IMG/VR virus record: IMGVR_UViG_3300025789_000018
Direction: 5' to 3' (one strand)
From: a virus
Lineage: Duplodnaviria > Caudoviricetes
DNA: 64,000 nt
Positions 3,565 to 62,285 of the stretch are shown piece by piece. How positions within the stretch are numbered: position 1 is the first letter of the stretch; every line of letters starts with the position of its first letter. Under the pieces are notes generated by a model. That model ran no database searches. It was given only the letters and a program-made list of their open reading frames with translations, and was not told where the DNA came from. The translations under genes and the position numbers were made by a program.

Positions 3565-3625
3565 TTCGAATCACTCCATCTCTCTGCTACATTCTCACAA
3601 TACGATGATTCGATAAAAATGTCAA
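3565..3625 (-). promoter_or_regulatory. Early sigma70-type promoter/leader element; first of ~22 dispersed copies
   Basis: TTGACA-N8-GANTC-N3-4-TATKRT followed by a GTAG-CAG-GAGA...GTGATTCG-ATG leader; copies have TTGACA at 3620, 8009, 8928, 9477, 13609, 14392, 15588, 16668, 17148, 17702, 46834, 50796, 51434, 52593, 61369, 61609 and others. Confidence 0.85.
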
Positions 3626-3652
3626 CCCAAAAGTTGTTTCAGTGCGTGAAAC

Positions 3653-3946
3653 TCAGAATGATGTCCACTCGTACTCGCTGTTACCTGTCTTGAAGCGAAC
3701 ATAGAGAAAGTTTGGATCCTCAGGATCAGTTCGCTCTTCCAGAATCTCAGTGATGTATGTGGTCTGCCACCAGTCGTATTCAGAGTACGACCGAGCATAG
3801 ATACTACCTACACGCATGACAACACCAACACGAGGTACTGCCGCATTTTCATACTGAATCTGATTATTATTGTCTTTCCATAGTGCCATGGACATGTTGC
3901 CCGAGTCACCAGCTTCATCTCTTGTTCTACGCAATGAATATGCCAT
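3653..3946 (-). CDS. Hypothetical protein
   Basis: ORF in a tightly packed minus-strand run. Confidence 0.6.
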   Translation of the reverse strand: MAYSLRRTRDEAGDSGNMSMALWKDNNNQIQYENAAVPRVGVVMRVGSIYARSYSEYDWWQTTYITEILEERTDPEDPNFLYVRFKTGNSEYEWTSF

Positions 3947-3947
3947 A

Positions 3948-4217
3948 TTACCACTCCGTTCCTACGGTGAAGTTAGTCTTTTCGTATGCTTGGAACCAGT
4001 CAACACCATATGCAGGGCAGATATAGATTGTATCAGGTAGACCGTTGGTATCCTTCTCACCACCTTCACCACAGATGAAGTAGCGATCACCAAGCTTCTC
4101 TGCTAAAATGGTGTGGTAAACTAGTCTATAGAACTTCCGAAGTTCTTCTAGTTCGCCTTCGAATGCTTCGGTCTTAAGATTACTATCAGAAAAATGCTCT
4201 TGCATTAGTTTACCCAC
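3948..4217 (-). CDS. Hypothetical protein
   Basis: ORF in a tightly packed minus-strand run. Confidence 0.6.
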   Translation of the reverse strand: MGKLMQEHFSDSNLKTEAFEGELEELRKFYRLVYHTILAEKLGDRYFICGEGGEKDTNGLPDTIYICPAYGVDWFQAYEKTNFTVGTEW

Positions 4218-4384
4218 ATCTTAAATAAAAGAGATGATAGATATATTGGCCAGATAGCCGCAGCAAATGCAGTGCCAATACACACAGGAACATCGTTTAA
4301 ACCGTCACGATATTCATCACCATGTTTTGCTTGATGATAACCACCCGACAATACTGCGATAATAATGTATAAGATAACAAACAT
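4205..4384 (-). CDS. Small membrane protein
   Basis: Two hydrophobic segments; start uncertain. Confidence 0.5.
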   Translation of the reverse strand: MFVILYIIIAVLSGGYHQAKHGDEYRDGLNDVPVCIGTAFAAAIWPIYLSSLLFKMWVN

Positions 4385-4595
4385 ATCATTGATTCCAAGC
4401 AAAGTCGCCATTAGTGGCATCGTAGTGTGCTGCATGATGCTTTATTACATCATTCTTCCAGGTGTTAGTAACAAGACCAAATGCGATAGCATATCCTACT
4501 AGTACACCGATTAAAAGATATACAACACAAATACCAAAGCCGCCATCATCCGTTTTCATTACACATTCTCCATCAATATACTTTAAGTTATCGGA

Positions 4596-4808
4596 TTACT
4601 CTCCTGGAATCCTGTACCAGTCAATGACTAGATCAAACGCATCAATGGCTTTCTGGATTTCAATATCATCTGCTTCTGAATCACCAAAGACAAACACGCT
4701 GTTATTTGCGCCTAGGTCTTGCGCAAGACTGTCTCGGGTCTCTTCAAGAGACTTCCATACAATCCGATCAAGTTGCTCATACGATAGTTCAACAGTCTTA
4801 TATGACAT
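4596..4808 (-). CDS. Hypothetical protein
   Basis: ORF coupled to its upstream neighbour. Confidence 0.55.
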   Translation of the reverse strand: MSYKTVELSYEQLDRIVWKSLEETRDSLAQDLGANNSVFVFGDSEADDIEIQKAIDAFDLVIDWYRIPGE

Positions 4809-5062
4809 TATACTTCAACCTTTCTATAGCGGGCATATGTACCATCGGTATGTTCTACCATGATTTCAACATGATTGTCAACAGTATTTTGACCAATAAT
4901 ATGCCCGATAGGGTTATTATTATCATGTGTCATACTAGCAGCATCAAAGCCTTCATTCCAAGCAGCATCCAACGTTAGATGTCGCTTAAAGATATACACG
5001 AACATGGCCAACATTAAAACGGCTGGTAGAGACACCAGCAAGTCTGGAACACTACAAGACAT
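4808..5062 (-). CDS. Hypothetical membrane protein
   Basis: N-terminal hydrophobic helix. Confidence 0.55.
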   Translation of the reverse strand: MSCSVPDLLVSLPAVLMLAMFVYIFKRHLTLDAAWNEGFDAASMTHDNNNPIGHIIGQNTVDNHVEIMVEHTDGTYARYRKVEV

Positions 5063-5065
5063 ACT

Positions 5066-5311
5066 TCAACCTTCCATATCTACAGTTGGTACAGTTTGCC
5101 ATTCCATAGAACTAACAACTTTATCGCCTACTACACTGTTAACGTGTACTTTGATTTGGATTTCAGTTCGACCTGTATACTCTTTTTGGTTCACAGCACC
5201 TTGAGTAGTTGACACGAATCGATTCTTATAGAAACGCACAACTCGCATATTATCAACCACGGCCAATCTCCTTCTTGTATTGGGCGAGGGCGGAATGCCA
5301 GTTTCCACCAC
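5066..5311 (-). CDS. Hypothetical protein
   Basis: ORF in the minus-strand run. Confidence 0.5.
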   Translation of the reverse strand: MVETGIPPSPNTRRRLAVVDNMRVVRFYKNRFVSTTQGAVNQKEYTGRTEIQIKVHVNSVVGDKVVSSMEWQTVPTVDMEG

Positions 5312-5519: not shown

Positions 5520-5533
5520 TTTTATAAACTCCG

Positions 5534-7713: not shown

Positions 7714-7959
7714 TTAAAATGTCAATGAAAAGTTTTCGTCATTCAAAATAAATGCGTGATCGTCGGTGTCGCCAGGAAACTCTTCAAACCAAACGATAGG
7801 GATAAACTCGTATCCGTCATGTTCGACACCGATCTTGCGAATCGTTACCCTCTTATCAAGAGTAGGACCTGGAATATCATACCCAGTTTTCTCATCAACC
7901 CACTCATCAACGTTGCAAAGCAAAGTTTGACCAACTTCAATGTTCTTAATCATAATCAA
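7714..7959 (-). CDS. Hypothetical early protein
   Basis: Behind an early promoter (TTGACA 8009-8014). Confidence 0.6.
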   Translation of the reverse strand: MIMIKNIEVGQTLLCNVDEWVDEKTGYDIPGPTLDKRVTIRKIGVEHDGYEFIPIVWFEEFPGDTDDHAFILNDENFSLTF

Positions 7960-8017
7960 ATCACCTTTCTCACTGTCTATATTTTCATCATAACAGATTC
8001 GCGATAAATGTCAACCA

Positions 8018-8872
8018 CTATTTGCAGCAGGTGACTTTCGCCATCGACATCCACTTGGGGCTGTTCATGTTGCGGATTCCTGCAACCTTGAGAACCATAC
8101 GCAGCGAAAGTTCACGCATGGTGTTTTGATGCGTTTCAATGAAAGACACAACATCGACCTGTGCGGCCTTTGCGATACCTTCACGATCAAGCATACCCTT
8201 ATCAAGGACTTGCTTGATGCGGATCATATAGTCACGCTTAGTCTTCATCGTAAGATCGATATAATGCGAACGAGAAATCATAGCGTTCATATGAGGAGCC
8301 AACTTGTGGCCTTTGCCAATCATAGCATCAAAGTCAAGATTGGTAATGAAAATGATAGTACCTTCAAACTCAAAACTCTTGGGCATGACAGTCATATCGG
8401 TTTCATCGATCAGAGTACCTTCCGTCATGTAACTAATACGACGGACTTTATTGCTGTCACAAGCAGCTTTAAGAAGATTGAGTGAAATATCATCAAAGAA
8501 GATAGCATCGGCATCATCGAAAACCAAAACTTTGCCTTGATCTTTATGTTGAAAGAGCAAGCGATACAAAGATGGCGCTTTCAGATGACCCTTAACAATC
8601 GTATGATTTTCTTCGGAAGCATCCCATCCTTTGAGTGCTTCCTCTACGGTAAAAGACTTACCAAGACCAGCAGGACCAGATACGATCAAAGCGCGAATAT
8701 CACCCTTGATCGCAGCATGAGTCATTTCATCCAGAATATCAAAACGTTCGAGGATGCGTTCTGAAATCTCAGCATCAGTCTCGACAATCTTTTGAATGTT
8801 GACTTCGCTGATATCGCGAATCTTGACCTTAGAAGTTTTACGAAACCCAGCTTTAGGAACACCACGAGGCAT
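8018..8872 (-). CDS. P-loop (AAA-type) ATPase
   Basis: Walker A GPAGLGKS, Walker B LVFDD. Confidence 0.8.
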   Translation of the reverse strand: MPRGVPKAGFRKTSKVKIRDISEVNIQKIVETDAEISERILERFDILDEMTHAAIKGDIRALIVSGPAGLGKSFTVEEALKGWDASEENHTIVKGHLKAPSLYRLLFQHKDQGKVLVFDDADAIFFDDISLNLLKAACDSNKVRRISYMTEGTLIDETDMTVMPKSFEFEGTIIFITNLDFDAMIGKGHKLAPHMNAMISRSHYIDLTMKTKRDYMIRIKQVLDKGMLDREGIAKAAQVDVVSFIETHQNTMRELSLRMVLKVAGIRNMNSPKWMSMAKVTCCK

Positions 8873-9482
8873 AACGAATCACTTTCTCTCTCTGACTACT
8901 TTTTCATCATAGCTGATTCGATAAAAATGTCAACCTTTTATACCAAGCGCCTTGCGACCAGGAGACATGTAATCTTTTTCAACATTTGTTTTATATGCAT
9001 GACAGCACTTGCAAAGTGTCTGACAGTTATCTTCAGTGTTGTGTGATGGATTGCCATCTTTGTGATCGACATCAAGCATACCATCCCAGATGATCGTGGT
9101 CGTGCAAGTAAATCCCAATCGACCGTCGATGTTTTCACAATAAGTTTTACGAAACTTACGGTAAGGATGAAAAGAGTTCGTAAACTGAGTTACATTATCA
9201 AACCCTGCTTTCTTTGCCATAACCTGCAGGATATTATCGAGACCATGCTGACTTGCTGTGTGTTTACTATGACATTTAGCGCAACGTTTCCGAAAGATTG
9301 GATATCCATCTTTTCGATATCGACCACAGTGTTGGCCAGTTTTGTTGCAACCATCAACGACGCACTTTGGCCTTTCGCTAATGTGAATAATCTTCTTTAT
9401 GACACTAGAACTAGCATTCATAACGAATCACTTTCTCTCTCTGACTACTTTTTCATCATAGCTGATTCGATAAAAATGTCAA
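8870..9482. repeat. Perfect 64-bp direct repeats (8870-8933 and 9419-9482) flanking an HNH gene
   Basis: Both copies read CATAACGAATCACTTTCTCTCTCTGACTACTTTTTCATCATAGCTGATTCGATAAAAATGTCAA. Confidence 0.95.
8930..9421 (-). CDS. HNH endonuclease
   Basis: DVDHKDGNPSHNTEDNCQTLCKCCHAYKT; Cys-rich N-terminus. Confidence 0.8.
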   Translation of the reverse strand: MNASSSVIKKIIHISERPKCVVDGCNKTGQHCGRYRKDGYPIFRKRCAKCHSKHTASQHGLDNILQVMAKKAGFDNVTQFTNSFHPYRKFRKTYCENIDGRLGFTCTTTIIWDGMLDVDHKDGNPSHNTEDNCQTLCKCCHAYKTNVEKDYMSPGRKALGIKG

Positions 9483-9489: not shown

Positions 9490-10353
9490 TCAAAAGTTTT
9501 TTATCAAACATTCGGTGACTTTCACCTTTTGACCATCTTTGGCTCCTCGGCCTGCGGTGTATGTCACATCAAAAAGCAAAGGAGAAAACGAATCGATCAG
9601 TTTTGATTCGAAAAAGTTGTCATAATGATACTTGTTAGCCATCGCAACAAAAGCGCCAGCATTCGCTGCATTGTTCATCATATTGCACAGACGTTCTTGA
9701 TCATAATCATCAAAAGCATTTTTTGTGTACTTCGTAAAGCAATCGCGATATGGAGGATCAAGAAACACATACGTGTCTTGATTGACATATTTGTCAAGGG
9801 TTTCGAAATCGTTTGAATGTAGATTCAGGTTCTGCGAAAAGATATGAAAGGCATTAATGACATCAACATCATAGATTTTTTCACGTTCGTTCAGTAGACC
9901 ACATGGAGTACCAAACTTGTTGTTAGTGTTCTTATTGATTTGCCATATGCCATTAAAAGATGTTTTTAGTAGTGAAAATAGCAATCCAGCCCGCTCGGCG
10001 TCGCTTAGATGATTATATGCATGAATGTTACGTTGTTCATAATAGAATGTTTTTCTGTCTTCTTTGTTCTTCGAAATGTACAAAGACTGATACTGATCAA
10101 CCACCTCAAGAAACTCTTTCTTGTTTGTTTTGATCTGTTTATAGATGTTAATGATATCTTCGTTATAATCGTTCACAAAGAACTCTGTGTTGGGATATCG
10201 ATCAAAGATCCACATACAGACTGCACCAGTACCAAAAAACGGATCGACAAACCTATCAAACTTACTTCCTGGCCAGAAGTCTGATCCATACTTCGATTTC
10301 ATTTTAGTCTTAGCACCAGCCCAACGAAAAAGTGGCTTCAAATCTTTCATCAT
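9490..10353 (-). CDS. Dam-like (D12 class) DNA adenine methyltransferase
   Basis: PLFRWAGAK, FVDPFFGTGAV, VNDYNEDIIN, FLDPPY. Confidence 0.9.
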   Translation of the reverse strand: MMKDLKPLFRWAGAKTKMKSKYGSDFWPGSKFDRFVDPFFGTGAVCMWIFDRYPNTEFFVNDYNEDIINIYKQIKTNKKEFLEVVDQYQSLYISKNKEDRKTFYYEQRNIHAYNHLSDAERAGLLFSLLKTSFNGIWQINKNTNNKFGTPCGLLNEREKIYDVDVINAFHIFSQNLNLHSNDFETLDKYVNQDTYVFLDPPYRDCFTKYTKNAFDDYDQERLCNMMNNAANAGAFVAMANKYHYDNFFESKLIDSFSPLLFDVTYTAGRGAKDGQKVKVTECLIKNF

Positions 10354-10850
10354 ATCTCCAATAGTGATAGTGTTTTATCCATAATAGAAACGATTTCATC
10401 TAAAGTAAAACCGTGCTCGGACATATGAAACTTAAAGTTTTTAGGATACATAATAGTATACTGAGAGGCCAATCTGCCTAATGGTCCATGTGGTACAACA
10501 CCAGAGCCAGAACAAAACGTTACGTATTTGACATTCTGAGATTGCCATTTCGCAAAGTCTGCGTTTTTAACCCATCGCTCTTGAGCGTTTCCTCGCATGT
10601 CTTGTTTCTTTGCTTCGAAGACTGCTACGAGTGTACCATCACTATTATACCAAGCACCACCATCTGGAGCAAAACCCATAACTTTATCTGTTTTGAATAT
10701 CTCTATCTTCTTTTGCTTGCTCATACGTTTCACACACTTCAGGTGTGGATGATTCTTGGCAACAATATCGATAGCAAGCTTACATGTATTGTCTAGAGAC
10801 TTAGACAGAGTATCAAAAGCTGTAGTACCAACTTGTATGCCTCGACTCAT
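10350..10850 (-). CDS. EcoRI-like type II restriction endonuclease
   Basis: PDGG...FEAKKQ...GNAQERWVKN..YVTFCSG parallels EcoRI PDGG..EAK.QG..GNAIER..KN; overlaps the MTase start (ATGA). Confidence 0.7.
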   Translation of the reverse strand: MSRGIQVGTTAFDTLSKSLDNTCKLAIDIVAKNHPHLKCVKRMSKQKKIEIFKTDKVMGFAPDGGAWYNSDGTLVAVFEAKKQDMRGNAQERWVKNADFAKWQSQNVKYVTFCSGSGVVPHGPLGRLASQYTIMYPKNFKFHMSEHGFTLDEIVSIMDKTLSLLEI

Positions 10851-10910
10851 ATCGAATCACCTTATATATCATTTACTACATTACTGATAATATAAGGATT
10901 AGAAAAAATG

Positions 10911-11597
10911 TCAAGTGGTTTTTTGAGGTACCTCGCCTGGTTGCTGAGATTTAATCCATTGCTGACCGACTCTATTTTTCACTGGACCTGTAGCGATCTT
11001 GCGAATCGTTTTGTGAACACCGTGGAGAAGATCCTCGCTGGCATTATTGTTATCAACAATATGCATGTTCTCATTACCGAAGTGATCCTGAAAGTGGCCG
11101 ATGTTGTCCTGGACTTGATTCCACATACGTTCAACGTGATGTGATGGCAATGATCGTTCACGCTCCATATTGCGCTGCTGAGCCACTGGAAGCGAGGTAT
11201 TGACGAACACCATATGTGTATCGTATCCCTGATTGCGTAGCGCCTCCGACTGCGCCTTGATCTTGGCCGCATCTTTCCCAGTACCATCGATTACCATACC
11301 TAGCTTACCTTGTTGATATAGCTTCTGGCGCTTGTTGGTGAGGTCTTTTGCTTTTGCTCTGACTACATCACGTTCTGCTGTTTCATGTTCAGGCATAGTT
11401 GGATCCAAGCCATGTTCTTTCATGCCCTTCTCAAACAGATCATCTGAGTTGACCATTTTGAAGCCTAAGCCGCCCATGGTTTTCTTTGTCACATAAGATT
11501 TGCCAGAACCAGGACCACCAGCAAGAAAGATTGCTTTTAGTTTTGCTGGATCATTAACGCCTTCTTCAAGGTCAACAAAGTCATTGAAACGTAGCAT
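10911..11597 (-). CDS. P-loop kinase (zeta-toxin/AAA_33-like); possible virion-internal protein
   Basis: FLAGGPGSGKS, VIDGTG, IVDNN; late promoter 11616-11623. Confidence 0.75.
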   Translation of the reverse strand: MLRFNDFVDLEEGVNDPAKLKAIFLAGGPGSGKSYVTKKTMGGLGFKMVNSDDLFEKGMKEHGLDPTMPEHETAERDVVRAKAKDLTNKRQKLYQQGKLGMVIDGTGKDAAKIKAQSEALRNQGYDTHMVFVNTSLPVAQQRNMERERSLPSHHVERMWNQVQDNIGHFQDHFGNENMHIVDNNNASEDLLHGVHKTIRKIATGPVKNRVGQQWIKSQQPGEVPQKTT

Positions 11598-13002: not shown

Positions 13003-13555
13003 CAATCTTATAAATGTCTTTCCAGTATTTTACCAAGACGGCTTTGCCTTTATAATCATGACTGTGTTCGTGTTCAACCAAAATACCTTTTAGACCAAGA
13101 CTATCGCACAAATCGACGTTCTCTGGTTTGTCCTCGATGAAGTATATTCCGCTGCCCTTATAGGGAGCAAGTGCTTCATCTTTATCTGCGCCACATTCCA
13201 GGCAGACGACACTTTCAATCGCTTCGCCGAAGTACCGCTTCAGGTTTTGTTCACGAAGCCGAGCAGCGGCAGGATCCAGACTCAAGCTGGTAATGACGCG
13301 AATCTGTACGCCATGTTCTTCATAGAGTTTGCGAACGTATTTCACAGCATCCCGAAGAGGAGGCAGAAAGCCACATGCCGCACTTTCGTTGAAATCACGA
13401 ACAAGTTGTTTGCTTACGACCTTTTCGATTCCATAGCGAAGATCAATGCCATAGGCATCGCTCCGAACCCGCTTGAACCCTTTGCGCTGCATCCACTGGT
13501 CGAAACCAAACTCCCAGTCTAGAAGAACGCCGTCGCAATCGCTCAAAATCAACAT
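12992..13555 (-). CDS. HAD-family 5'-nucleotidase-like phosphatase
   Basis: DCDGVLLDW, ITS, FIEDK motifs. Confidence 0.8.
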   Translation of the reverse strand: MLILSDCDGVLLDWEFGFDQWMQRKGFKRVRSDAYGIDLRYGIEKVVSKQLVRDFNESAACGFLPPLRDAVKYVRKLYEEHGVQIRVITSLSLDPAAARLREQNLKRYFGEAIESVVCLECGADKDEALAPYKGSGIYFIEDKPENVDLCDSLGLKGILVEHEHSHDYKGKAVLVKYWKDIYKIVKQ

Positions 13556-13610
13556 TTCATTCCCAATCTCACTCGCTACATTTCTTACTATATATGATTC
13601 GATTTAAATG

Positions 13611-14336
13611 TCAAGCAGCAATGCGCAAAACATTGCCGCCAGGACCATTGATCGGGCGAGAAAGATTGACACGATCACCAGCAGACTGACCGCTGCGATA
13701 TGCTGCACCATCACGAATGGTGGTAGTACCATATTTCTTCTTAAGACGCAAGCCAAGTTCACGATATGCCTGATTGACAACCTGATTCTTCAGAACAATC
13801 AAAGCATTGCTGCCGCCTCGTGCAGCTTTTTCTTCGCCGTTCATCTGAGCCTTCATTTCGTTCAGACGACGACCAATACGCATTGCCATACCAGTGGTAA
13901 ACGAACTGGTAGCACCTTTCTTGCTATATGCTCCCTTATATTCAGGAGTCTTCTTGAACTTTGCCAGTTCAGTTGCCATAGCCGACAGGATAATATCATA
14001 AAGATACTTCACCATCAGAAGATCGCTTTCTTGACCAAAGAAGCAATACTTCAGAGTAGCACCACGATTGGTCCACACCTTACAATCGGTAAAGCCAGCG
14101 ATATCCGAGAGAGCGTAATAGACGCCGTTGCGGACCTTGCTGCCAATATCAATCTTCAAAGTGTCACAAACTTCATCACGAAGTTCGACCTCGTTCATGG
14201 ACAGATTATATTGCGAGAGCAACTTACCCACCATGTTGATTGCGGTAAGTGCTTCTTCTTCCGAGCAGCCATTCTTGACGGTCTTAGCCGAGAGAGCGCG
14301 AATACGAGCCTTGATCTTGCTTTGGATATCAGTCAT
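13611..14336 (-). CDS. DUF2786-domain protein
   Basis: KIRALSAKTVKNGCSEEEALTA..KLLSQYNLS. Confidence 0.75.
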   Translation of the reverse strand: MTDIQSKIKARIRALSAKTVKNGCSEEEALTAINMVGKLLSQYNLSMNEVELRDEVCDTLKIDIGSKVRNGVYYALSDIAGFTDCKVWTNRGATLKYCFFGQESDLLMVKYLYDIILSAMATELAKFKKTPEYKGAYSKKGATSSFTTGMAMRIGRRLNEMKAQMNGEEKAARGGSNALIVLKNQVVNQAYRELGLRLKKKYGTTTIRDGAAYRSGQSAGDRVNLSRPINGPGGNVLRIAA

Positions 14337-14403
14337 AACGAATCATTCCTTCTCACTAGCTATATTTTCATCATAAACGAATCGGGATAAATGTCAAGCG
14401 ATC

Positions 14404-15175: not shown

Positions 15176-15532
15176 TTACGCAGCCAACTTGTAGGGTTGA
15201 TCCCACTTACCAGCATGAACATACGAGTACCAACCCACATCAAAGTAGTCGGTCATAATATCGCTGTTATCATGATTGCCGTCGTTCATAGCAACACGAA
15301 GTTCCTTCAAGAACTGAAGTTCCTTGCCCTGATAGTTGCTTTCCAGATGATAAAAGTGCATCTGACTATAACCGTTTTCGTTCTGAGCGAACTTCAGAGG
15401 ACCTTCTTTCAAGGTCAGAATCAGAGTGCTGTGATGGCGAACCGACAGACTACCCTTCATATTGTACTTCTTGAGGATCGCTTTGACCTTGGGAGCGATA
15501 GCAGCTTTCTTTTCCTGAGACATGTAAGCCAT
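15176..15532 (-). CDS. Conserved phage hypothetical early protein
   Basis: Behind an early promoter; DNSDIMTDYFDVGWY motif. Confidence 0.7.
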   Translation of the reverse strand: MAYMSQEKKAAIAPKVKAILKKYNMKGSLSVRHHSTLILTLKEGPLKFAQNENGYSQMHFYHLESNYQGKELQFLKELRVAMNDGNHDNSDIMTDYFDVGWYSYVHAGKWDQPYKLAA

Positions 15533-15597
15533 AACGAATCAACCCTTCTCTCTGTCTATATTCTTACCATACACGATTCGGGATAAATGTCAAGCGG

Positions 15598-16435: not shown

Positions 16436-16669
16436 TTAACTTCTCCTCAGCGATAAATGTTGCGCTTGAGTTCAACTTCAAACTCTTCTCGGCCGACGGT
16501 GCACCGATTGCCAGTCACTTCTTCATAGATCATGACTTCTTCCATCAGATTTCCAAGGTCAACACCTTTAGCAATGAAAGTCCCATTGTGATTACGAGCA
16601 ACAAACATTTTCATGATTCGAATCTCTCTCACTGACTACTTTTTCATCATAACAGAATCAGGAATAATG

Positions 16670-17092
16670 TCAAGCAGCGATTTTTTCGTAAACACCTTCG
16701 CCGTTGCTGAAACTGCCGATCTTGGCATAGCAGTTGAAAGCCTTGTTCAACACCTTTTCAAAGTTGGGTGCAATCCGATTGACCCAAGCATGGGCAAGAT
16801 TCTGCAAAGAAATCTCATCGCTGTAGTAGCAATCGTACTCTTTGGCGACCAGAGAAATGCTGGCCAGCCCACAGTATTCCGAAACTACAACTTGAGCGAA
16901 CCTGTTTTCCAGAATGGCACGAAGTTCACGCCCAATCCACTTGTCTTCGTTGTCAAACGATTTGTAGGCATCCTTGACGATGCTCTGCACATCATCTACA
17001 AAGTCATCCCATTCCCAGGAGTCCTGAATGTACGAAACATCAACATAGACCACAGCGCCGGCGCCACTGGCATAATCAACTGAACGTCCCAT
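16670..17092 (-). CDS. Hypothetical early protein
   Basis: Single gene bounded by two early promoter elements. Confidence 0.65.
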   Translation of the reverse strand: MGRSVDYASGAGAVVYVDVSYIQDSWEWDDFVDDVQSIVKDAYKSFDNEDKWIGRELRAILENRFAQVVVSEYCGLASISLVAKEYDCYYSDEISLQNLAHAWVNRIAPNFEKVLNKAFNCYAKIGSFSNGEGVYEKIAA

Positions 17093-17149
17093 AGCGAATC
17101 AACCTTTCTCAATGACTACATTCTTACCATAGACGATTCTGGATAAATG

Positions 17150-17350
17150 TCAAGAGTGCATTTGGATATCTTTGAGGTGTGGCGCGATCTGCTTGGCAGA
17201 ATATTGCACCTCGTTGATTTCAAAGAACCAGCGACCAGACTCTTCTCGTTTCAGTTTCAGTGCTTCACCTTCACGAAATGGCGAGATACCCCAAGTCCAT
17301 GGGCGACCTGTTTGAAGTTCGAATGCACCACCTGAAAGCTTCGTGATCAT
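17150..17350 (-). CDS. Hypothetical protein
   Basis: ORF preceded by an AAGGAG SD. Confidence 0.55.
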   Translation of the reverse strand: MITKLSGGAFELQTGRPWTWGISPFREGEALKLKREESGRWFFEINEVQYSAKQIAPHLKDIQMHS

Positions 17351-17361: not shown

Positions 17362-17646
17362 TTAACCGACAACTTCATCAATCACACTGACCAAATCTTC
17401 GACATAGATGCCTTCGAGTTTCTTGACATACTTTACATCAATGCCACGAATCTTGAAGAAGTCAATGTCGTAAAGGTCTTTGCCTTCGTTGTACTTGACG
17501 TAAACATAGCCCTTCCACTTGGCCATCCCGCTGGATTTGAACTTCAGCCCATCGCCCATGTTCACGAGGTCTTTAGCACCCCAAGCCCACAGTGCGCGAG
17601 GATCAATGGCTTTGATCTGGTCACGAATGATAACTGCGATGCTCAT
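17362..17646 (-). CDS. Hypothetical early protein
   Basis: Behind an early promoter (TTGACA 17702-17707). Confidence 0.65.
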   Translation of the reverse strand: MSIAVIIRDQIKAIDPRALWAWGAKDLVNMGDGLKFKSSGMAKWKGYVYVKYNEGKDLYDIDFFKIRGIDVKYVKKLEGIYVEDLVSVIDEVVG

Positions 17647-17711
17647 TGCGAATCACCTTTTCTCATTGACTACTTTCTCAATGTACACGATTCGCCAAAA
17701 ATGTCAACCAC

Positions 17712-44850: not shown

Positions 44851-45336
44851 TCAAGAAGAAATATCGATTTTAGAAAATCCCTCAGACAATGTTGGCTGTT
44901 GCATAGATTGTACCATACTGTCAAGAACAGTTTGGGGAATGTTTTTGCCAGGGCGACTGTTCAACCTACGTTCCCATTCTTCTTTCTCAGGAGTAGGAAA
45001 CACAACCGCTTCAATCTCATAACCATGATTAGGATGAAAGTTCTTAAGACGATCAAAGAACTTCTTACGAACCTTAGCGTTCAGGTTGGTACGATCAATA
45101 ACAATGGGATACTGCTTTGTTTCCACAGCACGATCAAACTCTTCCCACATGATACGTTCAGCAGCTTTGATGCTGTTAGCCCAAACATCATTATAGGTCT
45201 TGCCTGCGGCTTCTGCGATTTCTTCAACAATGTTATCGGTAGAGATAACAACACATTCGCCTTGAAACTCTTTTTCAATCCAAGTGGACTTGCCAGAAGC
45301 AGGAACACCAACGAGCATGATAATACGCTTAGTCAT
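44851..45336 (-). CDS. Polynucleotide-kinase-like P-loop protein (AAA_33)
   Basis: GVPASGKST, STD, IDRTN..R. Confidence 0.8.
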   Translation of the reverse strand: MTKRIIMLVGVPASGKSTWIEKEFQGECVVISTDNIVEEIAEAAGKTYNDVWANSIKAAERIMWEEFDRAVETKQYPIVIDRTNLNAKVRKKFFDRLKNFHPNHGYEIEAVVFPTPEKEEWERRLNSRPGKNIPQTVLDSMVQSMQQPTLSEGFSKIDISS

Positions 45337-45392
45337 CTCGAATCACTCCATCTATCTGCTACATTTTCAATATAGCTGATTATGAAAAAATG

Positions 45393-45536
45393 TCAATCGT
45401 TATTTTCCAACCGCTGCTTGATGGCAGCAATCACATCATCAAGGCATTCGTGCGAATCGGTGCCGTCTAACTCAAGCATGGCCTTTGCCCAATCAAGGTC
45501 ATCAAGCGCCATTTCCAAAAGTTCACGATCAGTCAT
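45393..45536 (-). CDS. Small hypothetical protein (47 aa, not in ORF track)
   Basis: Hand translation MTDRELLEMALDDL...; coupled to the ligase stop. Confidence 0.5.
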   Translation of the reverse strand: MTDRELLEMALDDLDWAKAMLELDGTDSHECLDDVIAAIKQRLENND

Positions 45537-46782
45537 TGTACTTCACTCCCGGAAACCAAGCATCACGGATCGCTTCATACTTTGCCGTGCGACCAAGGTT
45601 ATTACGGATCGTTTTGCGAACGTCTTCGCCAATCTTCAGACCACTGATAATGTCGTTATCAAAGTTCTTGAAAATAATAGGACGAATGAAAGCATCAACA
45701 CCAACACTGTGCTTCGGATCGATTGCAAACGTTTTACGATCAATACCACGCTCACGGAGATATTCCAGCTTCATACCAATCAGCCTTACGCGACGGGCAA
45801 TATCAAAATGAATATTGCTCTCAAACTGAGTCAGCCGATCACGATCTTCGGCAGGCAGATGAGCCTTGATGTCATCCAGCTTTTCTTCCAGAATCAGTTC
45901 AACGATGTTGCGATCTTGCAGGATAGCTTCCTTCGCCTTGTGAATCTGGAGATACCAATGGCACTTCAACTTCAACATATGACCATCATCAAAACGAACC
46001 ACGAACCCTTCAAGGTCTTCCAGATCGTGGACGTATTCAAGGAAAGCCTTCATATCATTCTGTTCACCATAGTTAGTGAACTCAAATGCACGGACGACAG
46101 GGATATCCCAATCTTCAACATGCAATCGGTTGATACGACCATCACCGAACAGTTTGATATATTCGCCAGTATGCATATCGCGAAGAGCGGTGAGGATCAG
46201 TTGATCTTCCTTGTAGTCCAGAACAATGCGCTGCTTACGCGAACACCATTCAAAGATAGGAGTTACACCGTTGGCAATGCAGGAAGTAGCAAACTTCTCA
46301 TACTGAGGTTTGTTCTTGACGAACTCCTCAACAGGCTTTGCCACGTCGGTAGCACCCATCTTCGTGCCCCAGATCATTTGACCATTCACAATGAACGGAG
46401 CGATCATGGAACCATCCAGCTTCTCAAGGATAGCATGAGGGCGCGACAGATCAATGACATGATCCTGCGTCTCCTCACGCTCGTTCACATTGAAGAACTT
46501 ATGGAACGGGCGACGAATGATATAACCAGTTTCAGTATCAAAGATGATACCACGACATTCACGACGGATTGCTGCGGTGGGATCGTACTCACCAAAAGCA
46601 ATACGATTGAGAGGCTCCTGCCACTTCATATCAACTGGCACATCAGGAAACGTATCGGACATCATCACGTTGTAGTTGATGACCGTGTAGCCTTCCTTCT
46701 CAGCCACAACGAACTCGTAACGACCTTCAATAGCAGGCAGCACATCAGCGATGTTGGTGATGTGAGGAAACTCATAGTTCAT
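45529..46782 (-). CDS. rnlA: RNA ligase 1 (T4 RnlA-like)
   Basis: ECRGIIF..FHKFFN, EKLDGS, TPIFEW, EGFVV, KLK. Confidence 0.88.
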   Translation of the reverse strand: MNYEFPHITNIADVLPAIEGRYEFVVAEKEGYTVINYNVMMSDTFPDVPVDMKWQEPLNRIAFGEYDPTAAIRRECRGIIFDTETGYIIRRPFHKFFNVNEREETQDHVIDLSRPHAILEKLDGSMIAPFIVNGQMIWGTKMGATDVAKPVEEFVKNKPQYEKFATSCIANGVTPIFEWCSRKQRIVLDYKEDQLILTALRDMHTGEYIKLFGDGRINRLHVEDWDIPVVRAFEFTNYGEQNDMKAFLEYVHDLEDLEGFVVRFDDGHMLKLKCHWYLQIHKAKEAILQDRNIVELILEEKLDDIKAHLPAEDRDRLTQFESNIHFDIARRVRLIGMKLEYLRERGIDRKTFAIDPKHSVGVDAFIRPIIFKNFDNDIISGLKIGEDVRKTIRNNLGRTAKYEAIRDAWFPGVKYND

Positions 46783-46835
46783 TGTTCAATCTTTCACTCT
46801 GCTACATTCTCACCATACACGATTCGTATTAAATG

Positions 46836-47909
46836 TCAAGAGGCATTATACCGCTGGATATACCATGGGCGTGCTACATTCGCAATAGCAGATCCCAGCT
46901 TCTTGGTATCAATCTGATTCGCAACGATGGTATCAGCTTCTTCCTTGACGACATCATTGTAGACCCAACGGATAAAATCGCCGAGAGACTTCATATCAAA
47001 GGGCAGCAGTTGTTCGCGAACCAGATTGTCTAGACCCTGTTCAAGACGCGATTCAGTGACAACTGATTCGATGAAAGCCTTCATGTTCTCTACTGCTTCA
47101 ACATCAACAGCAGCAAGAGTCTTGACCTTCGAAGAAGAATGCTTTTCGCCCTTGACTTTAAACCAAGTGCCCGAGTCGTTATAACCAGGAGTGACGCAAG
47201 TCCACACAACACCTTCGCCAATGCCGCTAACACCAAAGTGCTTACCGACAGGGCATTCGGCTTCAACAGCTTCCGTGATTTCGATCATCTTGTTCTGAGC
47301 GATTTCAGGAAAGTTGAAGTCAATGTCGATTTCGTAGGTAGGAAACTCATTGATCCAGTAAATATTAGGGACAGCCCGTTGACTCACTTCAATGAAACTT
47401 GGCATGTTTGCCCAGACAGAATCATCATCTGCATACATTTCTTTATATGCAAACACAACAAACATCTTGTCCAGACCAGTAAGAGCAACACCCTTTTGGA
47501 TATTACCACCGCACCATTCACCAAACAAAACTAGTTTTGTTGGCATTTTATTGGTCTTGCGCGGAGCAAACTGTTCCATAAGACCGTTGTGGAAACATGC
47601 TTCAAAATACTGAATAAAGATTGATTCGTGACTCTTAGCCCAAAGCATGAAGCCAGCATTGTCAGAAGTCAGCGACAGTTCACGTTCACGCGACTGATAG
47701 CTAATAGTGTCGGTGGCAACGTCATACACGATACCCGCGTTGGTACCATGCAGCTTGACAGTACCACGAAACTTCAGCGTAGGAAGCGGGCGAGAATGAT
47801 CATACACAGCATTGCCATCAGCATCCTTGCCAGCATACCGCGTATGGTTCTTGACATGATGAATCGTGGAACGGAACTGTTCAATAGAGGGAAACCTAAT
47901 CAAGTGCAA
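46836..47909 (-). CDS. RNA ligase 2 (Rnl2 family)
   Basis: KLHGTN, QSR, FGEW, GEGVV, KVK; probable TTG start after AAGGAG. Confidence 0.85.
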   Translation of the reverse strand: MHLIRFPSIEQFRSTIHHVKNHTRYAGKDADGNAVYDHSRPLPTLKFRGTVKLHGTNAGIVYDVATDTISYQSRERELSLTSDNAGFMLWAKSHESIFIQYFEACFHNGLMEQFAPRKTNKMPTKLVLFGEWCGGNIQKGVALTGLDKMFVVFAYKEMYADDDSVWANMPSFIEVSQRAVPNIYWINEFPTYEIDIDFNFPEIAQNKMIEITEAVEAECPVGKHFGVSGIGEGVVWTCVTPGYNDSGTWFKVKGEKHSSSKVKTLAAVDVEAVENMKAFIESVVTESRLEQGLDNLVREQLLPFDMKSLGDFIRWVYNDVVKEEADTIVANQIDTKKLGSAIANVARPWYIQRYNAS

Positions 47910-48499
47910 TCTCCTTTTCTTTGCATGGCATATCTTCCGCACCAAAATCTACGATATAAGGAAAGGGAAGATAATCTTCCAGAACATCAACCACTGTTCC
48001 TACTTGATTTTCGTTAACAAGTCCAATATCTCGCGTGGCATACACCCTATCACCAATCTTAAACATAATCTTCTTCCTCATCTTCAATCAAGAAACCTTC
48101 ACCACCACAAACGACGCAAGTTTCACCATATTCTACACCACTGCCACCACAGACCATACAATCAATAGGATTGCAGCCACGACGACCATACGCATCTTCA
48201 TACACATCAGGATCAATCATAAAGACTCACTTATAAAGTTCAAGAGGATGAACGACCGTCAGTTCTTCTTTGACATATAGCCAGAAGGGTTCAGGAAAAG
48301 GCGGAGCATATTCACGCCCATAGAACACTTTGATCAACTTGCCATCGACATCGGCGACAACACCAACGCGATCCTTGTTGGGCCAAATGCACGAGCGGAC
48401 CGAATCACCAACTTTAATCATAAAAAATCTTCCTTTCGCTGTCTGATAACTCATCATATCAAAAGGGAGATAAATGTCAACCAGTTTTTTCAGAAAAAA

Positions 48500-50509: not shown

Positions 50510-50813
50510 TTCACTTAGCCTTTCGGATGAGACGCGCAACGTCTTTGTCAAGAAAATCACCAGTAGTGTACCAAACACGCGATGCAACGCAGTCAGTCAC
50601 GGCCAGAGCGCATATGTCAGCGTTCGGGCATGTATCGCAGGGAATATCGCGAACGTTCTCTGGAGTGTTTAGGATCATCTTGGAAGCAGTGCAGACACCG
50701 TTCATGAAAGATGTGTCTGTTGAAACTGAAAAATAATCTGCGTTCATGACAATCTCCGTTTTCTATTATGTATACCTAGCACGATTCGCGATTAATGTCA
50801 ACCGTATTTTCGA

Positions 50814-51014: not shown

Positions 51015-51379
51015 TATTCGCCCTCCACAAGCTTGAAGCCAAACGTATCAACCTCAAAAACTTCACCATCAATGATCATACGGTCACCGACCATAGACGA
51101 GCGATGACCCCACTTTTCGCCGGCGAAACAGTCAAGAGGCTTTACAACAATCACATGAGGATTGAAATCGGGATTCTCATAAAGTTCGCCCTTATAATCG
51201 ATCATTCGTTCCATCGACCAGGAACCACCGATGTTCTGAGTGTGACGATAGGCATATTCCAGAGCGTCTTGTACTCCCATATTATCAAACATGTAGCTTG
51301 ACAGATCAATCGTAGCCATATGCTCAAACCAACGATTGCCGAGACCGTCGCGATCAAAATGAAGAACTTGAACTTCCAT
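51014..51379 (-). CDS. Hypothetical early protein
   Basis: Behind an early promoter; RSSMVGD motif. Confidence 0.65.
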   Translation of the reverse strand: MEVQVLHFDRDGLGNRWFEHMATIDLSSYMFDNMGVQDALEYAYRHTQNIGGSWSMERMIDYKGELYENPDFNPHVIVVKPLDCFAGEKWGHRSSMVGDRMIIDGEVFEVDTFGFKLVEGE

Positions 51380-51690
51380 AACGAATCACCTTTTCTCTTT
51401 GCTACATTCTCACCATACACGATTCGTGAATAATGTCAAACGAAATCTTCGAGAGCCTTGACCTGAATCGGAGTGGCGATGCGAAGAAACTTCCGAATGG
51501 TTTCAGCGGCTAGCGTGTATTCTTGCATTTCTAGAAGTTCCATTTCTAGTAGAAGTTCATTAACGATTTCAGTAACAGTCATTTCAGTTTCCTGTATTAC
51601 ACATGGGTTTGCCGTCACGATCCAGACGAGGAAGCCCATAAAAGATTGTGAATAAAGCCAGAGGAATGCCGGCTGCATATAGAAAAGTTT

Positions 51691-52251: not shown

Positions 52252-52536
52252 TCAGATAACCTTTCCATCAAGAACAAAGTAGTTGTGAGCGCCATGCTCA
52301 CCGTAATGAAACGACAGAAGACCATCATCTTCAAAAATCTGAAGAGGAGCGCGACCAGCAGCAATCTTGGCAAAATATTCGTCAACGCTGTAGTGCTTCT
52401 TCAGAACCGCAACAAACTTAGCCTTGTTGACTGGACCACGATGCTTGAAGCGGGCGACAAACTTACGTTCGCCGTTGTGGTTGTAGTGAAGGTATCCACC
52501 GTGATATTCGAAGTTGGCTTTTTCAAACTTGACCAT
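52252..52536 (-). CDS. Hypothetical early protein
   Basis: Behind an early promoter (TTGACA 52593-52598). Confidence 0.65.
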   Translation of the reverse strand: MVKFEKANFEYHGGYLHYNHNGERKFVARFKHRGPVNKAKFVAVLKKHYSVDEYFAKIAAGRAPLQIFEDDGLLSFHYGEHGAHNYFVLDGKVI

Positions 52537-52599
52537 GACGAATCACTTTCTCTCTCTGTCTACTTTCTGACAATAGACGATTCGCGATAAAATGTCAAG

Positions 52600-59079: not shown

Positions 59080-59108
59080 AGTCGATCCTGTATGTTTTGT
59101 CAAGAGAT

Positions 59109-59134: not shown

Positions 59135-59140
59135 ATCTAT

Positions 59141-59590: not shown

Positions 59591-59867
59591 TTCTTCCCTC
59601 TTAGGTTCGAAGACCTAGGCGACAACTGAAAGTCTTATAGGGTATCTCAACCCGTACAGACAGCTATGCTATGAGAAGATACAAAGTAAATGTATATGGT
59701 ATCTTCTACATCCATTTCCCTCTTACTGGAAATGCAAGATCGTCGTTGTTTCGTTTGAATCATATCGATAGTATAACGTGATACTGTAGATATAATGCTT
59801 ACTAGCCATCGCAGACTTGAAGCGTTGTAAGAGTACAATGGAAGTAGAACTTCCAATGGTATTTATA
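59591..59867 (-). promoter_or_regulatory. Late promoter (59860-59867) plus structured leader homologous to 905-1145
   Basis: Same ordered blocks: 5' GGAAG/CTTCC hairpin, CTCTTAC...GTAAGAG, AGAAGATAC...GTATCTTCT, TGAGA loop, CTATAAG, TCGCC. Confidence 0.7.
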
Positions 59868-59874
59868 TGAGACA

Positions 59875-60062
59875 TATTCTAGACCGTGCCTAGGTTGATC
59901 GCGAATACGTCTGCGCTTCCATCTCGGCGCAGATTGACACTTACTCCTCATCCCTGGAGCAGTTATCGGATAGTCCTCTTTGGTGCGCTTATGGTGGATT
60001 CCATCCAGAGGCGTAAGAGGCTCAGAAAACCCATACATATGTAACAGAGGTATGGGTCATAT
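59875..60062 (-). ncRNA. Putative ~190-nt multibranch RNA E behind TATAAGTA (60069-60076)
   Basis: Stems 60029-60036/60050-60057, 59940-59944/60013-60017, 59975-59979/60007-60011, 59910-59916/59927-59933. Confidence 0.4.
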
Positions 60063-60071
60063 TGTCTTTAC

Positions 60072-60377
60072 TTATACACTAGTTTTACGTGGTTGTCTAG
60101 TCTTTTTTGGAGCAGCAGGTGCAGATGGCTCTGGTGCTACCTTTGGTGCCCTAGGCTTACGCGGTGGCTTGGGCTTATCTGGCTGCTTGCTGCGATGTAG
60201 AATGATGATACCCTTAGATCGCAGTTCACGAATAATCTTACCATGATCCATTAGAAGCTTGTTAAGTGCTTCCTTATCAACAGGAGCATTAGGAGCCTTG
60301 CGCTTCAGATACTTGTCCACAGATTCGTGAATACCATGAAACTCTTCATCTGTGCAATCTAGATATATTGCGGCCAT
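60072..60377 (-). CDS. Hypothetical protein with Pro/Lys-rich tail
   Basis: ORF in the minus-strand run. Confidence 0.55.
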   Translation of the reverse strand: MAAIYLDCTDEEFHGIHESVDKYLKRKAPNAPVDKEALNKLLMDHGKIIRELRSKGIIILHRSKQPDKPKPPRKPRAPKVAPEPSAPAAPKKTRQPRKTSV

Positions 60378-60657
60378 GATTACAGCCTTCCACTGATATC
60401 AATGATGTCATAGCGATCATAATGGTGTGCCTCTTGCAGACACACATCAATATACTTTTGTGCCTCTTCCAAAGTCTCAAACGACTTAAGGAAGTTATCT
60501 TCTGCAGGATAATAACGATCCCAGCCTAGTACCCAAAATACTTTCATATTCATTCTCACCAAAACTTGGCAACAAAGTGCCAGATAACACCGATAATGAT
60601 GCCCCAGAATGCAACATTCGCGAGAAACGTAAACAGCACCATTTTATAAAACGTATT

Positions 60658-61126
60658 CATAATCAAAACTCCAAAACATTAGAGGTACGACGAGTGATTT
60701 CAGAGAGGACAGTAATCTTTCCTTTATGCCCTGCTATTTTGTAATGAGTGCGCTGTTCAAGTTCAAACAGAAGATCAGCATATTCTTCTTCATCATGCAC
60801 AACTCCATCAAACAGAAAATACGTGTCTCCATCATGATCAGGCACCGTACTAATAGTCACAACAGCAGTAAACATAATCAAAACTCCTTAAATACCTTTT
60901 CAATAGACTTAACACGCCAGGACCAAGCTTTTATGCAAGGACCAACATCAAGCGCTGCTTGATCTGCTTTTTTCCAAGAAGTTGCGGTCACTTTAACTTG
61001 GACATCTTTCTTGCCTTCAAAATAATCCAGATCATGATCGACAAGATAGGGATGACGACCGTTTACTTCCAGTGTCACAATATACTGATGCACACGATTT
61101 TTGCAGAAAAACATAATCAAAACTCC
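60658..61126. repeat. 15-bp gene-junction repeat x3 (GGAGTTTTGATTATG on the minus strand)
   Basis: Identical at 60658-60672, 60873-60887 and 61112-61126; encodes E-F-stop + SD + ATG. Confidence 0.85.
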
Positions 61127-61610
61127 CAAATCTTGACGCCACGACGAATCAGTTCCTTTGCGATCAACTTTTCCATTCGATCAACCTGTTTGACAAGGCG
61201 ATCACTCAGCTTGTCACGGTTGCATTCGGAGAGGAAAAAGAGAGCCGCTTCAAGATCATCCGATGACTGAAAACGAATCACGATGGGGGCAAAGAGTTGC
61301 TTAAGATTCATATTGATTGCTCCACAAACTCACTGACTACATTCTTACCATAACAGATTCGAGTTATATGTCAAGCAGCCTTTTGTGCTTTGCGATATTT
61401 TTGAATCTGGCGATCAAGATTCTTTTGGTCGATGTAACCATCTTTACGAACTTGACCTAGATCATCCAAAACATTGAGAATATCGCTCACACCGTCGATA
61501 TTGATACCGTAGCTACGAATCACAGAGATAGAAGCAGATAAACTAAACATAACGAATCACCTTATATCTCACTGACTACATTACTGATAATACACGACTC
61601 GGGAATAATG

Positions 61611-62285
61611 TCAAGAGGGAAATGTGTATCCCACCAAAGATTCTAACTCTGATAAAGATTTTTCTATCAGAGCAGATCCTTCAACGTTGTCAGCCATATA
61701 AACTTTGATAGAGCGATCTTTGAGATAGACAACTTTGTAATACGCCGATGGAACGGGAATCCTACGTTCTCCAATACAAGTAGATGGATCAGTATAGATT
61801 GCACCAGTCACCACGTATTGCGTCTCCATCCCTCTCACCATCGCTTCCAGTTCTTTCCAGATAATCCTGTTTACATCTGGTAGTTGTGGTGTCATGTTGG
61901 TCATTAGAAATGTGTCGCGCATCTGGACTTCGTTTCCAGCGTCAGCAGCGGGTGTTAGATGCCCGCGATCATATCCACTGTCTGTATAGTCATCTGGTGT
62001 TGGTGACCGTTTCAGGCGAGGATCAGAGCAGAATGCGTCGTCTCTTTCCACGTGGTCATGTGGTGGCTGTGTCACTTCAGCAGATAGAATCGTTCTCATA
62101 TTCTTTTCATCATAAAGAACGAGATAGAACGAGTTACAAAGCACTGTGGTACCAGGCACGACAATAGCCTGACCGTAAGGCCAGACTTGATTTGCAGGTA
62201 ACGATGGAGGCAGCTTCCGCTTTGCTAGAAAAGAAAATGCAGCGGAAGCTAACATCCTAGGGATAGATAGCAACCGCTGCATCAT
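61611..62285 (-). CDS. DNA/RNA non-specific endonuclease (NucA family)
   Basis: YDRGHLTPAAD..MTNMTPQ..VNR..WKELE..VPSAYYK. Confidence 0.9.
   Translation of the reverse strand: MMQRLLSIPRMLASAAFSFLAKRKLPPSLPANQVWPYGQAIVVPGTTVLCNSFYLVLYDEKNMRTILSAEVTQPPHDHVERDDAFCSDPRLKRSPTPDDYTDSGYDRGHLTPAADAGNEVQMRDTFLMTNMTPQLPDVNRIIWKELEAMVRGMETQYVVTGAIYTDPSTCIGERRIPVPSAYYKVVYLKDRSIKVYMADNVEGSALIEKSLSELESLVGYTFPS

Follow-up and report, generated by a model that had tools for sequence, protein, structure and literature searches.

A GANTC box and its inverted partner form a putative two-site docking element, resembling GcrA sites, in the early promoter cassettes of a freshwater T4-like phage clade

How is early transcription tuned in T4-like phages that lack MotA/AsiA, Alt or Mod? 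This question is raised by the IMG/VR record IMGVR_UViG_3300025789_000018 (Caudoviricetes), analyzed here as one stretch of 64,000 nucleotides (nt), hereafter called the window. It has 41% G+C, nearly all of its genes lie on the minus strand, and its gene content is T4-like (nrdA/nrdB, gp61-type primase, RNase H, RNA ligases 1 and 2, thyX and phoH); motA or asiA were not seen among the window open reading frames (ORFs) scanned. A preliminary description of this DNA had noticed that many TTGACA promoter elements are followed at a fixed distance by GANTC, the methylation site of CcrM. We found that these GANTC sites all lie within one repeated early promoter/5'-untranslated region (5'-UTR) cassette of ~65 bp, with the -35 box at one end and the start codon at the other. 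From its sequence, the GANTC box (box 1), together with a second box just ahead of the ATG (box 2), is best read as a selected, clade-specific two-site element at which a protein would dock on DNA.

Nineteen copies of the cassette were identified in the window by nhmmer and by a weight matrix that was blind to spacer columns 11-21, 18 of them in the usual register and one, at 52598, with the box offset by 9. All 19 are located on the coding strand before ORFs of 55-417 amino acids (aa), and they are shuffled in relatives. Reading from the 5' end, the cassette consists of TTGACA, a T-rich stretch, three free bases, GANTC, three bases and TATGRT, followed by a GTAG-YCA start region, a purine-rich ribosome site, TGATTCG, two free bases and the ATG. 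By a promoter scan of the sequence, TTGACA, the 16-bp spacer and TATGRT are sigma70-type elements. Columns further than 10 upstream of TTGACA hold no information, and a hairpin is present ahead of some copies only (13614, 17707). GANTC is present in 16 of the 19 copies; the G is lost in 10914 (TAATCC) and 45396 (TAATC), and the whole box is missing in 48480 (CCTTT).

According to the preliminary description, GANTC begins exactly 8 bp past TTGACA in 15 cases, and this held for all 15 boxes listed there, each on the minus strand. The TTGACA positions that it gave are the low ends, and the first bases on the minus strand lie 5 higher (3625, 8014, 8933, 9482, 13614, 14397, 15593, 16673, 17153, 17707, 46839, 50801, 51439, 61374 and 61614). 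The one copy reported with GANTC at 9 bp (TTGACA at 52598) was recovered as well, and the middle base does vary, being A in 12, T in two and G in one of the 15 sites. In dinucleotide shuffles, TTGACA followed after 8 bp by GANTC occurred 0.38 ± 0.60 times, and at least 15 times in 0 of 100, a figure that overstates independence because the copies share descent. The early estimate of about 22 dispersed TTGACA promoters was roughly right: besides the 19 cassette copies, ~8 further TTGACA promoters are present that have 17-bp spacers, TATAAA/TATTAT-type -10 elements and no GANTC (e.g. 2792, 5644, 7116, 18460, 28216, 44854). This is compatible with cassette and non-cassette TTGACA promoters being two promoter classes. 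Outside the cassettes GANTC is neither avoided nor enriched (273 versus 283).

To what extent is the box itself maintained? In the window alignment, it forms an island of information amid nearly random columns. A scan of IMG/VR for the cassette yielded 35 stretches of related contigs, from which further cassettes were collected with a box-blind matrix. GANTC was found at the same column in 19 of the 24 distinct cassettes from these relatives that had not been ascertained via the box, and one sublineage mostly has GATTC in place of GAATC. Over 53 distinct cassettes, the mean pairwise diversity was 0.13 at G, A, T and C, a value that is somewhat flattering because 20 of the 53 were found by a pattern that required GANTC; the unbiased subsets (16/19 in the window and 19/24 in the relatives) agree with the same picture. 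In this set the middle base had a diversity of 0.56 and the spacer columns on either side of the box 0.54-0.63, with 0.24 for the -10 hexamer. The constraint therefore falls on GA-N-TC with its centre free, and on these sequence comparisons the box appears clearly to be under selection. The earlier argument for protein recognition over simple duplication was thus borne out, in the form of selection on GA-N-TC with a middle base as free as the flanks. If the box were functionless, a passenger of a recombining cassette that has spread recently, one would expect copies related by descent, as they are (those at 8933 and 9482 are identical), and recombination as in PeSL-type cassettes. Yet the neighbouring spacer columns have diverged and the four box columns have not, and the middle base flips between A and T among sublineages with the outer bases kept; the cyanophage homologues of the site drift. 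This explanation is extremely unlikely.

Such homologues in other phages indicate whether the constraint is peculiar to this clade. Synechococcus phages have an element consisting of AATCGTG, TATTCT, 5 nt and AGTCAAAGGA, which follows a hairpin and occurs in 102 Synechococcus phage records; examples are found in S-RIM8 (NC_020486; 37305-37360, 38881-38950, 40130-40235 and 156403-156460), Syn9 (46320, 48589) and S-SM1 (44678, 160456). Because this S-RIM8-type element is conserved, cyanomyophages and the phage studied here have a homologous cassette core. Marine Synechococcus myophages resemble it in the AATCGTG core, the TATTCT-type -10, the 5-8 nt before AGTCA, the purine-rich ribosome site and the small ORFs in a hyperplastic region, but their first GANTC base varies, their -35 is weak and no TGATTCG precedes the ATG; in the freshwater clade GANTC has been kept and box 2 is additional. 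In S-RIM8, three sites between genes have GAATC-GTG-TATTCT, then AGTCA and a ribosome site. At orthologous sites, the GAATC of S-RIM8 is AAATC in Syn9 and S-SM1, and a second S-RIM8 site, GAGTC, is GGGTC in S-SM1. With promoters defined without regard to the box (TTG..., 16-18 bp, TA...T, 5-8 bp, AGTCA), GANTC precedes the -10 in 6/6 cases in the window, 3/8 in S-RIM8, 0/5 in Syn9 and 0/4 in S-SM1. The excess of GANTC-N3-TATNNT in S-RIM8 (11 versus 1) was considered as a refutation and rejected, as the G is not conserved in Syn9 and S-SM1; a modest excess in PAU (29 versus 11 in the control) consists of sites without a -35 box or common context. Within the clade, GANTC-N3-TATNNT is biased to one strand (15 forward and 0 reverse in relative G001, 0 forward and 16 reverse in G004). 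The box-2 signature occurs on the coding strand eight and seven times in two clade fragments, plus once antisense in each, and 0-2 times per genome in 16 isolate genomes. Since the cyanophage orthologues drift and the isolates are without the box-2 pattern, the GANTC constraint, as far as sequence can tell, is clade-specific and not general to this promoter family or to RNA polymerase contacts.

The second TGATTCG just ahead of the ATG, also pointed out in the preliminary description, is real: 12 copies were found in the window against 0.19 expected, and it stands 2 nt from the ATG in 35 of 54 distinct cassettes (window and relatives). An extended Shine-Dalgarno sequence, which had been offered as part of its explanation, is insufficient. 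The purine tract takes several forms among 11 distinct leaders (AAGG, GGAG, AAAG, AGGT, GGGT, AGGAA), and the two bases between TGATTCG and the ATG differ too, while all seven bases of TGATTCG are invariant. The gene starts of the window show two styles of ribosome site, a purine tract plus TGATTCG-NN-ATG in cassettes and AGGAG/AAGGAG 6-9 nt before the ATG elsewhere. TGATTCG-NN-ATG is a sequence signature that marks this phage clade.

Boxes 1 and 2 are one 7-mer in inverted orientation. Read on the T/G-centred strand, 45 copies of box 1 comprise CGATTCG (18), AGATTCG (12), TGATTCG (10), TGATTCT or CGATTCT (4) and CGAGTCG (1), and in 28 of 31 cassettes the two boxes lie 38-39 bp apart, bracketing the -10 and the start site. 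Because the same word occurs on both strands and one copy is untranscribed, it would be recognized as double-stranded DNA. Box 2 could instead act in mRNA: UGAUUCG by the AUG would then be bound by a translational repressor or nuclease, in the way of T4 RegA sites on early mRNAs, and box 1 would be a spacer element without relation to it. Such a role would agree with the position of box 2 at a constant 2 nt from the ATG, within the predicted 5'-UTR; its TGAT can lengthen pairing with the 3' end of 16S rRNA, and regA is encoded by cyanomyophages and T4-likes. However, box 1 is untranscribed and yet the same 7-mer on the other strand, so that one repeated word would need two separate explanations; a RegA-type operator is an RNA element without an untranscribed mirror, whereas here the inverted 7-mer sits in the spacer, and RNAalifold found no conserved pairing in the leader. 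We regard an action in mRNA as highly unlikely. A loose two-box scan of IMG/VR returned at least seven full cassettes, most of the matches listed being due to chance. Four distant IMG/VR contigs (L164, L166, L217 and L168) contain variant cassettes with the same two-box layout and other leaders (AGAATCT, TACTAT, GTGATTCG), and the two-box architecture therefore reaches past the immediate clade.

Which protein might read the boxes? GcrA is an alphaproteobacterial cofactor that rides on sigma70 domain 2 and speeds closed- and open-complex formation, and GcrA/CcrM-dependent sigma70 promoters have been described in Caulobacter crescentus (Fioravanti 2013, PMC3667746; Haakonsen 2015, PMC4647560; Wu 2018, PMC5887438). 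GcrA prefers TGATTCG, more broadly YGAKTCK, and the methylation sites of its promoters are 'narrowly centred around -20' and distributed between +2 and +30 (Haakonsen 2015, PMC4647560); a motif of YGAKTCG with all seven bases contacted, and a DNA-binding domain that fits at -20 ± 1, have also been reported (Wu 2018, PMC5887438). Box 2 is exactly the GcrA consensus TGATTCG in its 12 window copies, and among 45 distinct copies of box 1, 33 conform to YGAKTCK (about a quarter would by chance) and 29 to YGAKTCG, the consensus in both cases being that of Caulobacter. The mostly YGATTCG-like context given in the preliminary description was supported, the 12 copies of box 1 outside YGAKTCK reading AGATTCG. 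If transcription starts 7 nt past the -10, as predicted from sequence, box 1 would be located at about -20 to -16 and box 2 at about +20 to +24, both within the published GcrA zones. As in Caulobacter GcrA/CcrM promoters, the promoters are sigma70-type, with GANTC in TGATTCG/YGAKTCK flanking the -10 in either orientation, at positions that from the predicted start would be about -20 and within +2 to +30. The cassette differs in that its sites are in a phage, in ~19 near-identical mobile copies, and in that both zones would be filled within one promoter at a fixed spacing of 38-39 bp. No description of such boxes in phage promoters was found in papers mentioning GcrA, GANTC and phage. We know of no MerR-type, LacI/Cra-type, Fur, DnaA or IHF site with a 5-bp core that has a free centre and recurs after 39 bp.

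We propose that one sequence-specific protein would dock on both boxes, box 1 being read on the bottom strand in the spacer and box 2 on the top strand, with sigma70 RNA polymerase bound between them. The best single candidate for this reader is GcrA of a putative alphaproteobacterial host, a tentative assignment in which our confidence falls somewhat short of even. Promoters that combine a perfect -35 with a short spacer and TATGRT as the -10 would be well served by the speeding of complex formation by GcrA, and these rather weak -10/16-bp-spacer promoters might fire best in GcrA-containing, i.e. replicating, cells. A role for N6-methyladenine (m6A) methylation of GANTC is suggested less firmly than the start site, the protein binding, the reader or the host, all of which we infer.

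The preliminary description had also allowed for a phage GcrA and proposed to look for gcrA/ccrM homologues, and here the searches turned up nothing. GcrA was not found by Pfam among 50 window ORFs, nor was there a match of a custom GcrA hidden Markov model (built from four alphaproteobacterial proteins) among 8117 six-frame ORFs of the window and relatives, and PF07750 and PF01555 were not found in G001 and 33 other related fragments. The sole DNA methylase of the window (9490-10353, D12) is closest to DpnM, a GATC enzyme. These negatives are compatible with host GcrA, yet they remove support for a phage-borne GcrA/CcrM module and lend none to methylation. That the clade wired its early promoters to GcrA/CcrM in such a way that the m6A state limits firing to S-phase cells, or to parental (methylated) as opposed to newly replicated phage DNA, is unlikely; if true, m6A gating would amount to a host epigenetic device taken over as an early-to-late switch. 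Methylation gating as a whole, the GcrA-linked version included, we would likewise not expect. In its GcrA-independent form, GANTC would be methylated by an enzyme of the phage or host, and its methylation state, differing between parental and newly replicated DNA, would alter the binding of sigma70 polymerase directly. GA-N-TC with a free centre does resemble a methyltransferase site, and methylation-sensitive promoters are familiar from Dam control of IS10 and of P1/Mu genes. On the other hand, the one methylase of the window is DpnM/Dam-like, searches of the window and relatives yielded no GANTC-type (N6_N4) enzyme, and the bases flanking GANTC are also constrained, which a GANTC methylase does not need. 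The direct switch is therefore, like the mRNA action, quite improbable.

An alphaproteobacterial host is suggested by two genes. A permuted (two-piece) transfer-messenger RNA (tmRNA) gene is located at 2471-2757 (minus strand; promoter at 2792) and scores 72.4 bits against RF04321 (cut-off 47). Of the alphaproteobacterial genomes sampled, 146 of 151 exceed this cut-off with RF04321 (the matches listed score 84-171 bits), whereas none of 41 Cyanobacteriota does, the best reaching 45.6 bits. The tag AHNDNDFAAVRMSA (AHNDND...) is without the usual LAA/VAA end and shares NDN of the ANDN start that was found in 27 of 28 sampled alphaproteobacterial tags. The tmRNA is identical in G001; permuted tmRNAs are also present in HTVC008M and one marine relative, and not in three cyanomyophages, Cr30 and PAU. 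BLAST of the tmRNA against phages gave a T-arm match only. A match to Rfam beta_tmRNA (49 bits) was below cut-off, as was that of Caulobacter, and was not used either way; a true beta two-piece tmRNA was found in none of 81 gammaproteobacterial genomes. The second gene encodes an outer-membrane beta-barrel protein of 157 aa (17775-18248, minus strand; OMP_b-brl, 1.2e-13). Its atlas neighbours are Pseudomonadota, the nearest structural cluster being itself mostly viral, and no relatives of this gene were found in bacterial genomes. Taken together, the tmRNA and the outer-membrane gene lean weakly to an alphaproteobacterial host.

Two other sources were of no use as host markers. The SleB-type endolysin is uninformative because its homologues are spread over many gammaproteobacterial phages. 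T4-like contigs whose NrdA is 62-72% identical to that of this phage (L045-L053) were binned in metagenome-assembled genomes (MAGs) of Melainabacteria, Rhodobacteraceae (three contigs, one bin), Nanopelagicales, Marinovum, Gammaproteobacteria and Bacteroidetes. These MAGs, of six differing phyla or classes (two Rhodobacteraceae), were not counted as host evidence, and the placement of the contigs in them is probably mis-binning; the cassette was not found in them. The marine relative in the Marinovum bin has an alpha-type tmRNA and no GANTC promoters.

Several observations weigh against host GcrA as the reader. The AGATTCG copies of box 1 (12/45) lie outside YGAKTCK, and TTGACA with a 16-bp spacer and TATGRT may work without a cofactor. 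Searches of the window and 34 related fragments (~730 kb in total) turned up neither gcrA nor a ccrM-type methylase; these are pieces of genomes of >250 kb, the window amounting to about 25% of its own. The box-1 pattern was seen in 0 of 10 T4-like isolates checked, six of them on alphaproteobacteria, and the box-2 pattern in 0 of 16; GANTC at the fixed offset was not found in Cr30 (Caulobacter), HTVC008M, phiM12, PAU, Atu_ph07 and P10VF. The tmRNA is very diverged, with at most 48% identity to 28 alphaproteobacterial and two phage tmRNAs, and Melnitz, which infects the non-alphaproteobacterial OM43, carries an alpha-type tmRNA.

In the main rival reading, the boxes would be read by a phage protein, early or virion-delivered, or by a host factor other than GcrA, the likeness to GcrA sites being convergent or coincidental; examples would be a delayed-early activator, or a repressor for shut-off that grips the -10 and start from either side. 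We consider this possible, if doubtful. It predicts the same constraint and inverted two-site geometry, there is no confirmed host with GcrA, and the isolates on alphaproteobacteria do not use the box. The second class of TTGACA promoters, with 17-bp spacers, near-consensus -10 elements and no box, is what two temporal classes predict, and many cassette-driven ORFs without a known family would be candidate readers. Promoter boxes read by phage proteins have precedents in the T4 MotA box and in SPO1 TF1 on hydroxymethyluracil-containing early promoters. However, a DNA-binding candidate was not identified among the ORFs, the exact 7/7 match to TGATTCG would have arisen by chance at both GcrA-typical positions, and immediate-early promoters must act ahead of phage protein synthesis.

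Host GcrA or not, the element differs from the regulatory modules known in T4-type phages. PeSL elements are mobile regulatory cassettes that spread by recombination (Arbiol 2010, PMC2839356; Comeau 2014, PMC4122927). Like them, the cassette is a dispersed, near-identical sigma70 early module found in many copies before small variable early ORFs of a T4-like genome, and some copies come after a terminator-like hairpin. PeSL consists of a stem-loop plus promoter, with no conserved spacer or leader box described, whereas the cassette has no constant upstream hairpin and its conserved unit extends from promoter to ATG. T4 middle promoters (MotA/AsiA) also have a short box at a fixed position in a phage promoter class, with a reader that partners sigma70, as is proposed here; but the MotA box at -30 replaces the -35, and the cassette keeps a perfect -35 with its box in the spacer.

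The individual copies, all on the minus strand, illustrate this architecture. The one nearest the consensus (15530..15593) has box 1 CGAATCG (15579-15575), -10 TATGGT and box 2 TGATTCG (15540-15536) before a 118-aa ORF. Box 2 is also TGATTCG in the copies at 3562..3625 (box 1 CGAATCA, 3611-3607; -10 TATTGT one base later; box 2 at 3572-3568; 134-aa ORF), 9419..9482 (CGAATCA, 9468-9464; TATGAT; 9429-9425; 163-aa ORF) and its identical recent duplicate 8870..8933 (CGAATCA, 8919-8915; 8880-8876; 284-aa ORF), 17090..17153 (AGAATCG, 17139-17135; TATGGT; 17100-17096; 140-aa ORF), 17644..17707 (CGAATCG, 17693-17689; TACATT; 17654-17650; 94-aa ORF), 51377..51439 (CGAATCG, 51425-51421; TATGGT; 51387-51383; 121-aa ORF) and 61548..61614 (TTGACA 61614-61609; CGAGTCG with GAGTC at 61600-61596; TATTAT; GATTC at 61558-61554; 59-aa ORF), as well as in the copy with a 17-bp spacer, 52534..52598 (CGAATCG at offset 9, 52583-52579; TATTGT; 52544-52540; 94-aa ORF). 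The middle base is flipped at 14334..14397 (CGATTCG, 14383-14379; TATGAT; box 2 TGATTCG, 14344-14340; DUF2786/DUF7168 protein of 241 aa) and 16612..16673 (TGATTCT, 16659-16655; TATGAT; two overlapping GANTC before the ATG, 16624-16615). Box 1 is broken with box 2 TGATTCG kept at 45334..45396 (TAATC; TATATT; 45344-45340; P-loop kinase AAA_33, 161 aa) and 10848..10914 (TAATCC; TATTAT; 10858-10854; 166-aa ORF and D12 methylase). This 166-aa ORF overlaps the DpnM-like D12 methylase gene, with the single cassette ahead of both (9490-10850, minus strand).

Box 2 is mutated (TGATTTG) at 7951..8014 (box 1 CGAATCT, 8000-7996; TATGAT; 79-aa ORF) and missing at 13553..13614 (CGAATCA, 13600-13596; TATAGT; 187-aa HAD-like ORF), 46780..46839 (CGAATCG, 46825-46821; TATGGT; RNA ligase 1, 417 aa) and 61309..61374 (CGAATCT, 61360-61356; TATGGT; GAATC overlapping the ATG; 64-aa ORF). 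At 50745..50801 the promoter half of the cassette is joined to another leader (CGAATCG, 50787-50783; weak -10; no box 2; 78-aa ORF), and the diverged copy at 48419..48480 has neither box (spacer CCTTT; -10 TATGAT); the box is missing from its orthologues in relatives too.

As to the phage itself, near-identity and protein searches found no close relative among isolate phages, where both a 680-aa ORF and the cassette were without a match. The best matches of the primase are Synechococcus myophages (49% identity), with Caulobacter phage Cr30 and Pelagibacter phage HTVC008M at ~40%. The IMG/VR relative G001 (68 kb) has 42% of k-mers in common with the window, and all sequencing runs that contained window DNA (24/24) are freshwater metagenomes. 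A tRNA-repair-like early block (44851-47945, minus strand) encodes RNA ligase 2, RNA ligase 1 and the AAA_33 P-loop kinase, the latter two with their own cassette each; homologues of Rnl1 and Rnl2 are present in Cr30 (38% and 53%) and none in HTVC008M. The window also encodes a segE-type homing endonuclease and the Dam-family methylase. AATT is nearly missing (32 sites versus 268 expected in the window, 24 versus 286 in G001), and a nuclease specific for AATT may be carried by the phage or directed against it; CGATCG (1 versus 17), AGATCT (0 versus 15) and GCATGC (0 versus 10.6) are also depleted in the window. HTVC008M (NC_020484) avoids GANTC (43 sites versus 240 Markov-expected and 441 by composition) and GATC too (83 versus 379), and Cr30 and the window show no such avoidance.

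If GcrA does read the boxes, the cassettes would represent the first class of phage promoters based on the site of a host sigma70 cofactor, and they would tie lytic infection to the host cell cycle or DNA methylation state. Even with another reader, the cassette would present a sharply delimited two-box regulatory element, for which the cyanophage homologues serve as a natural negative control.

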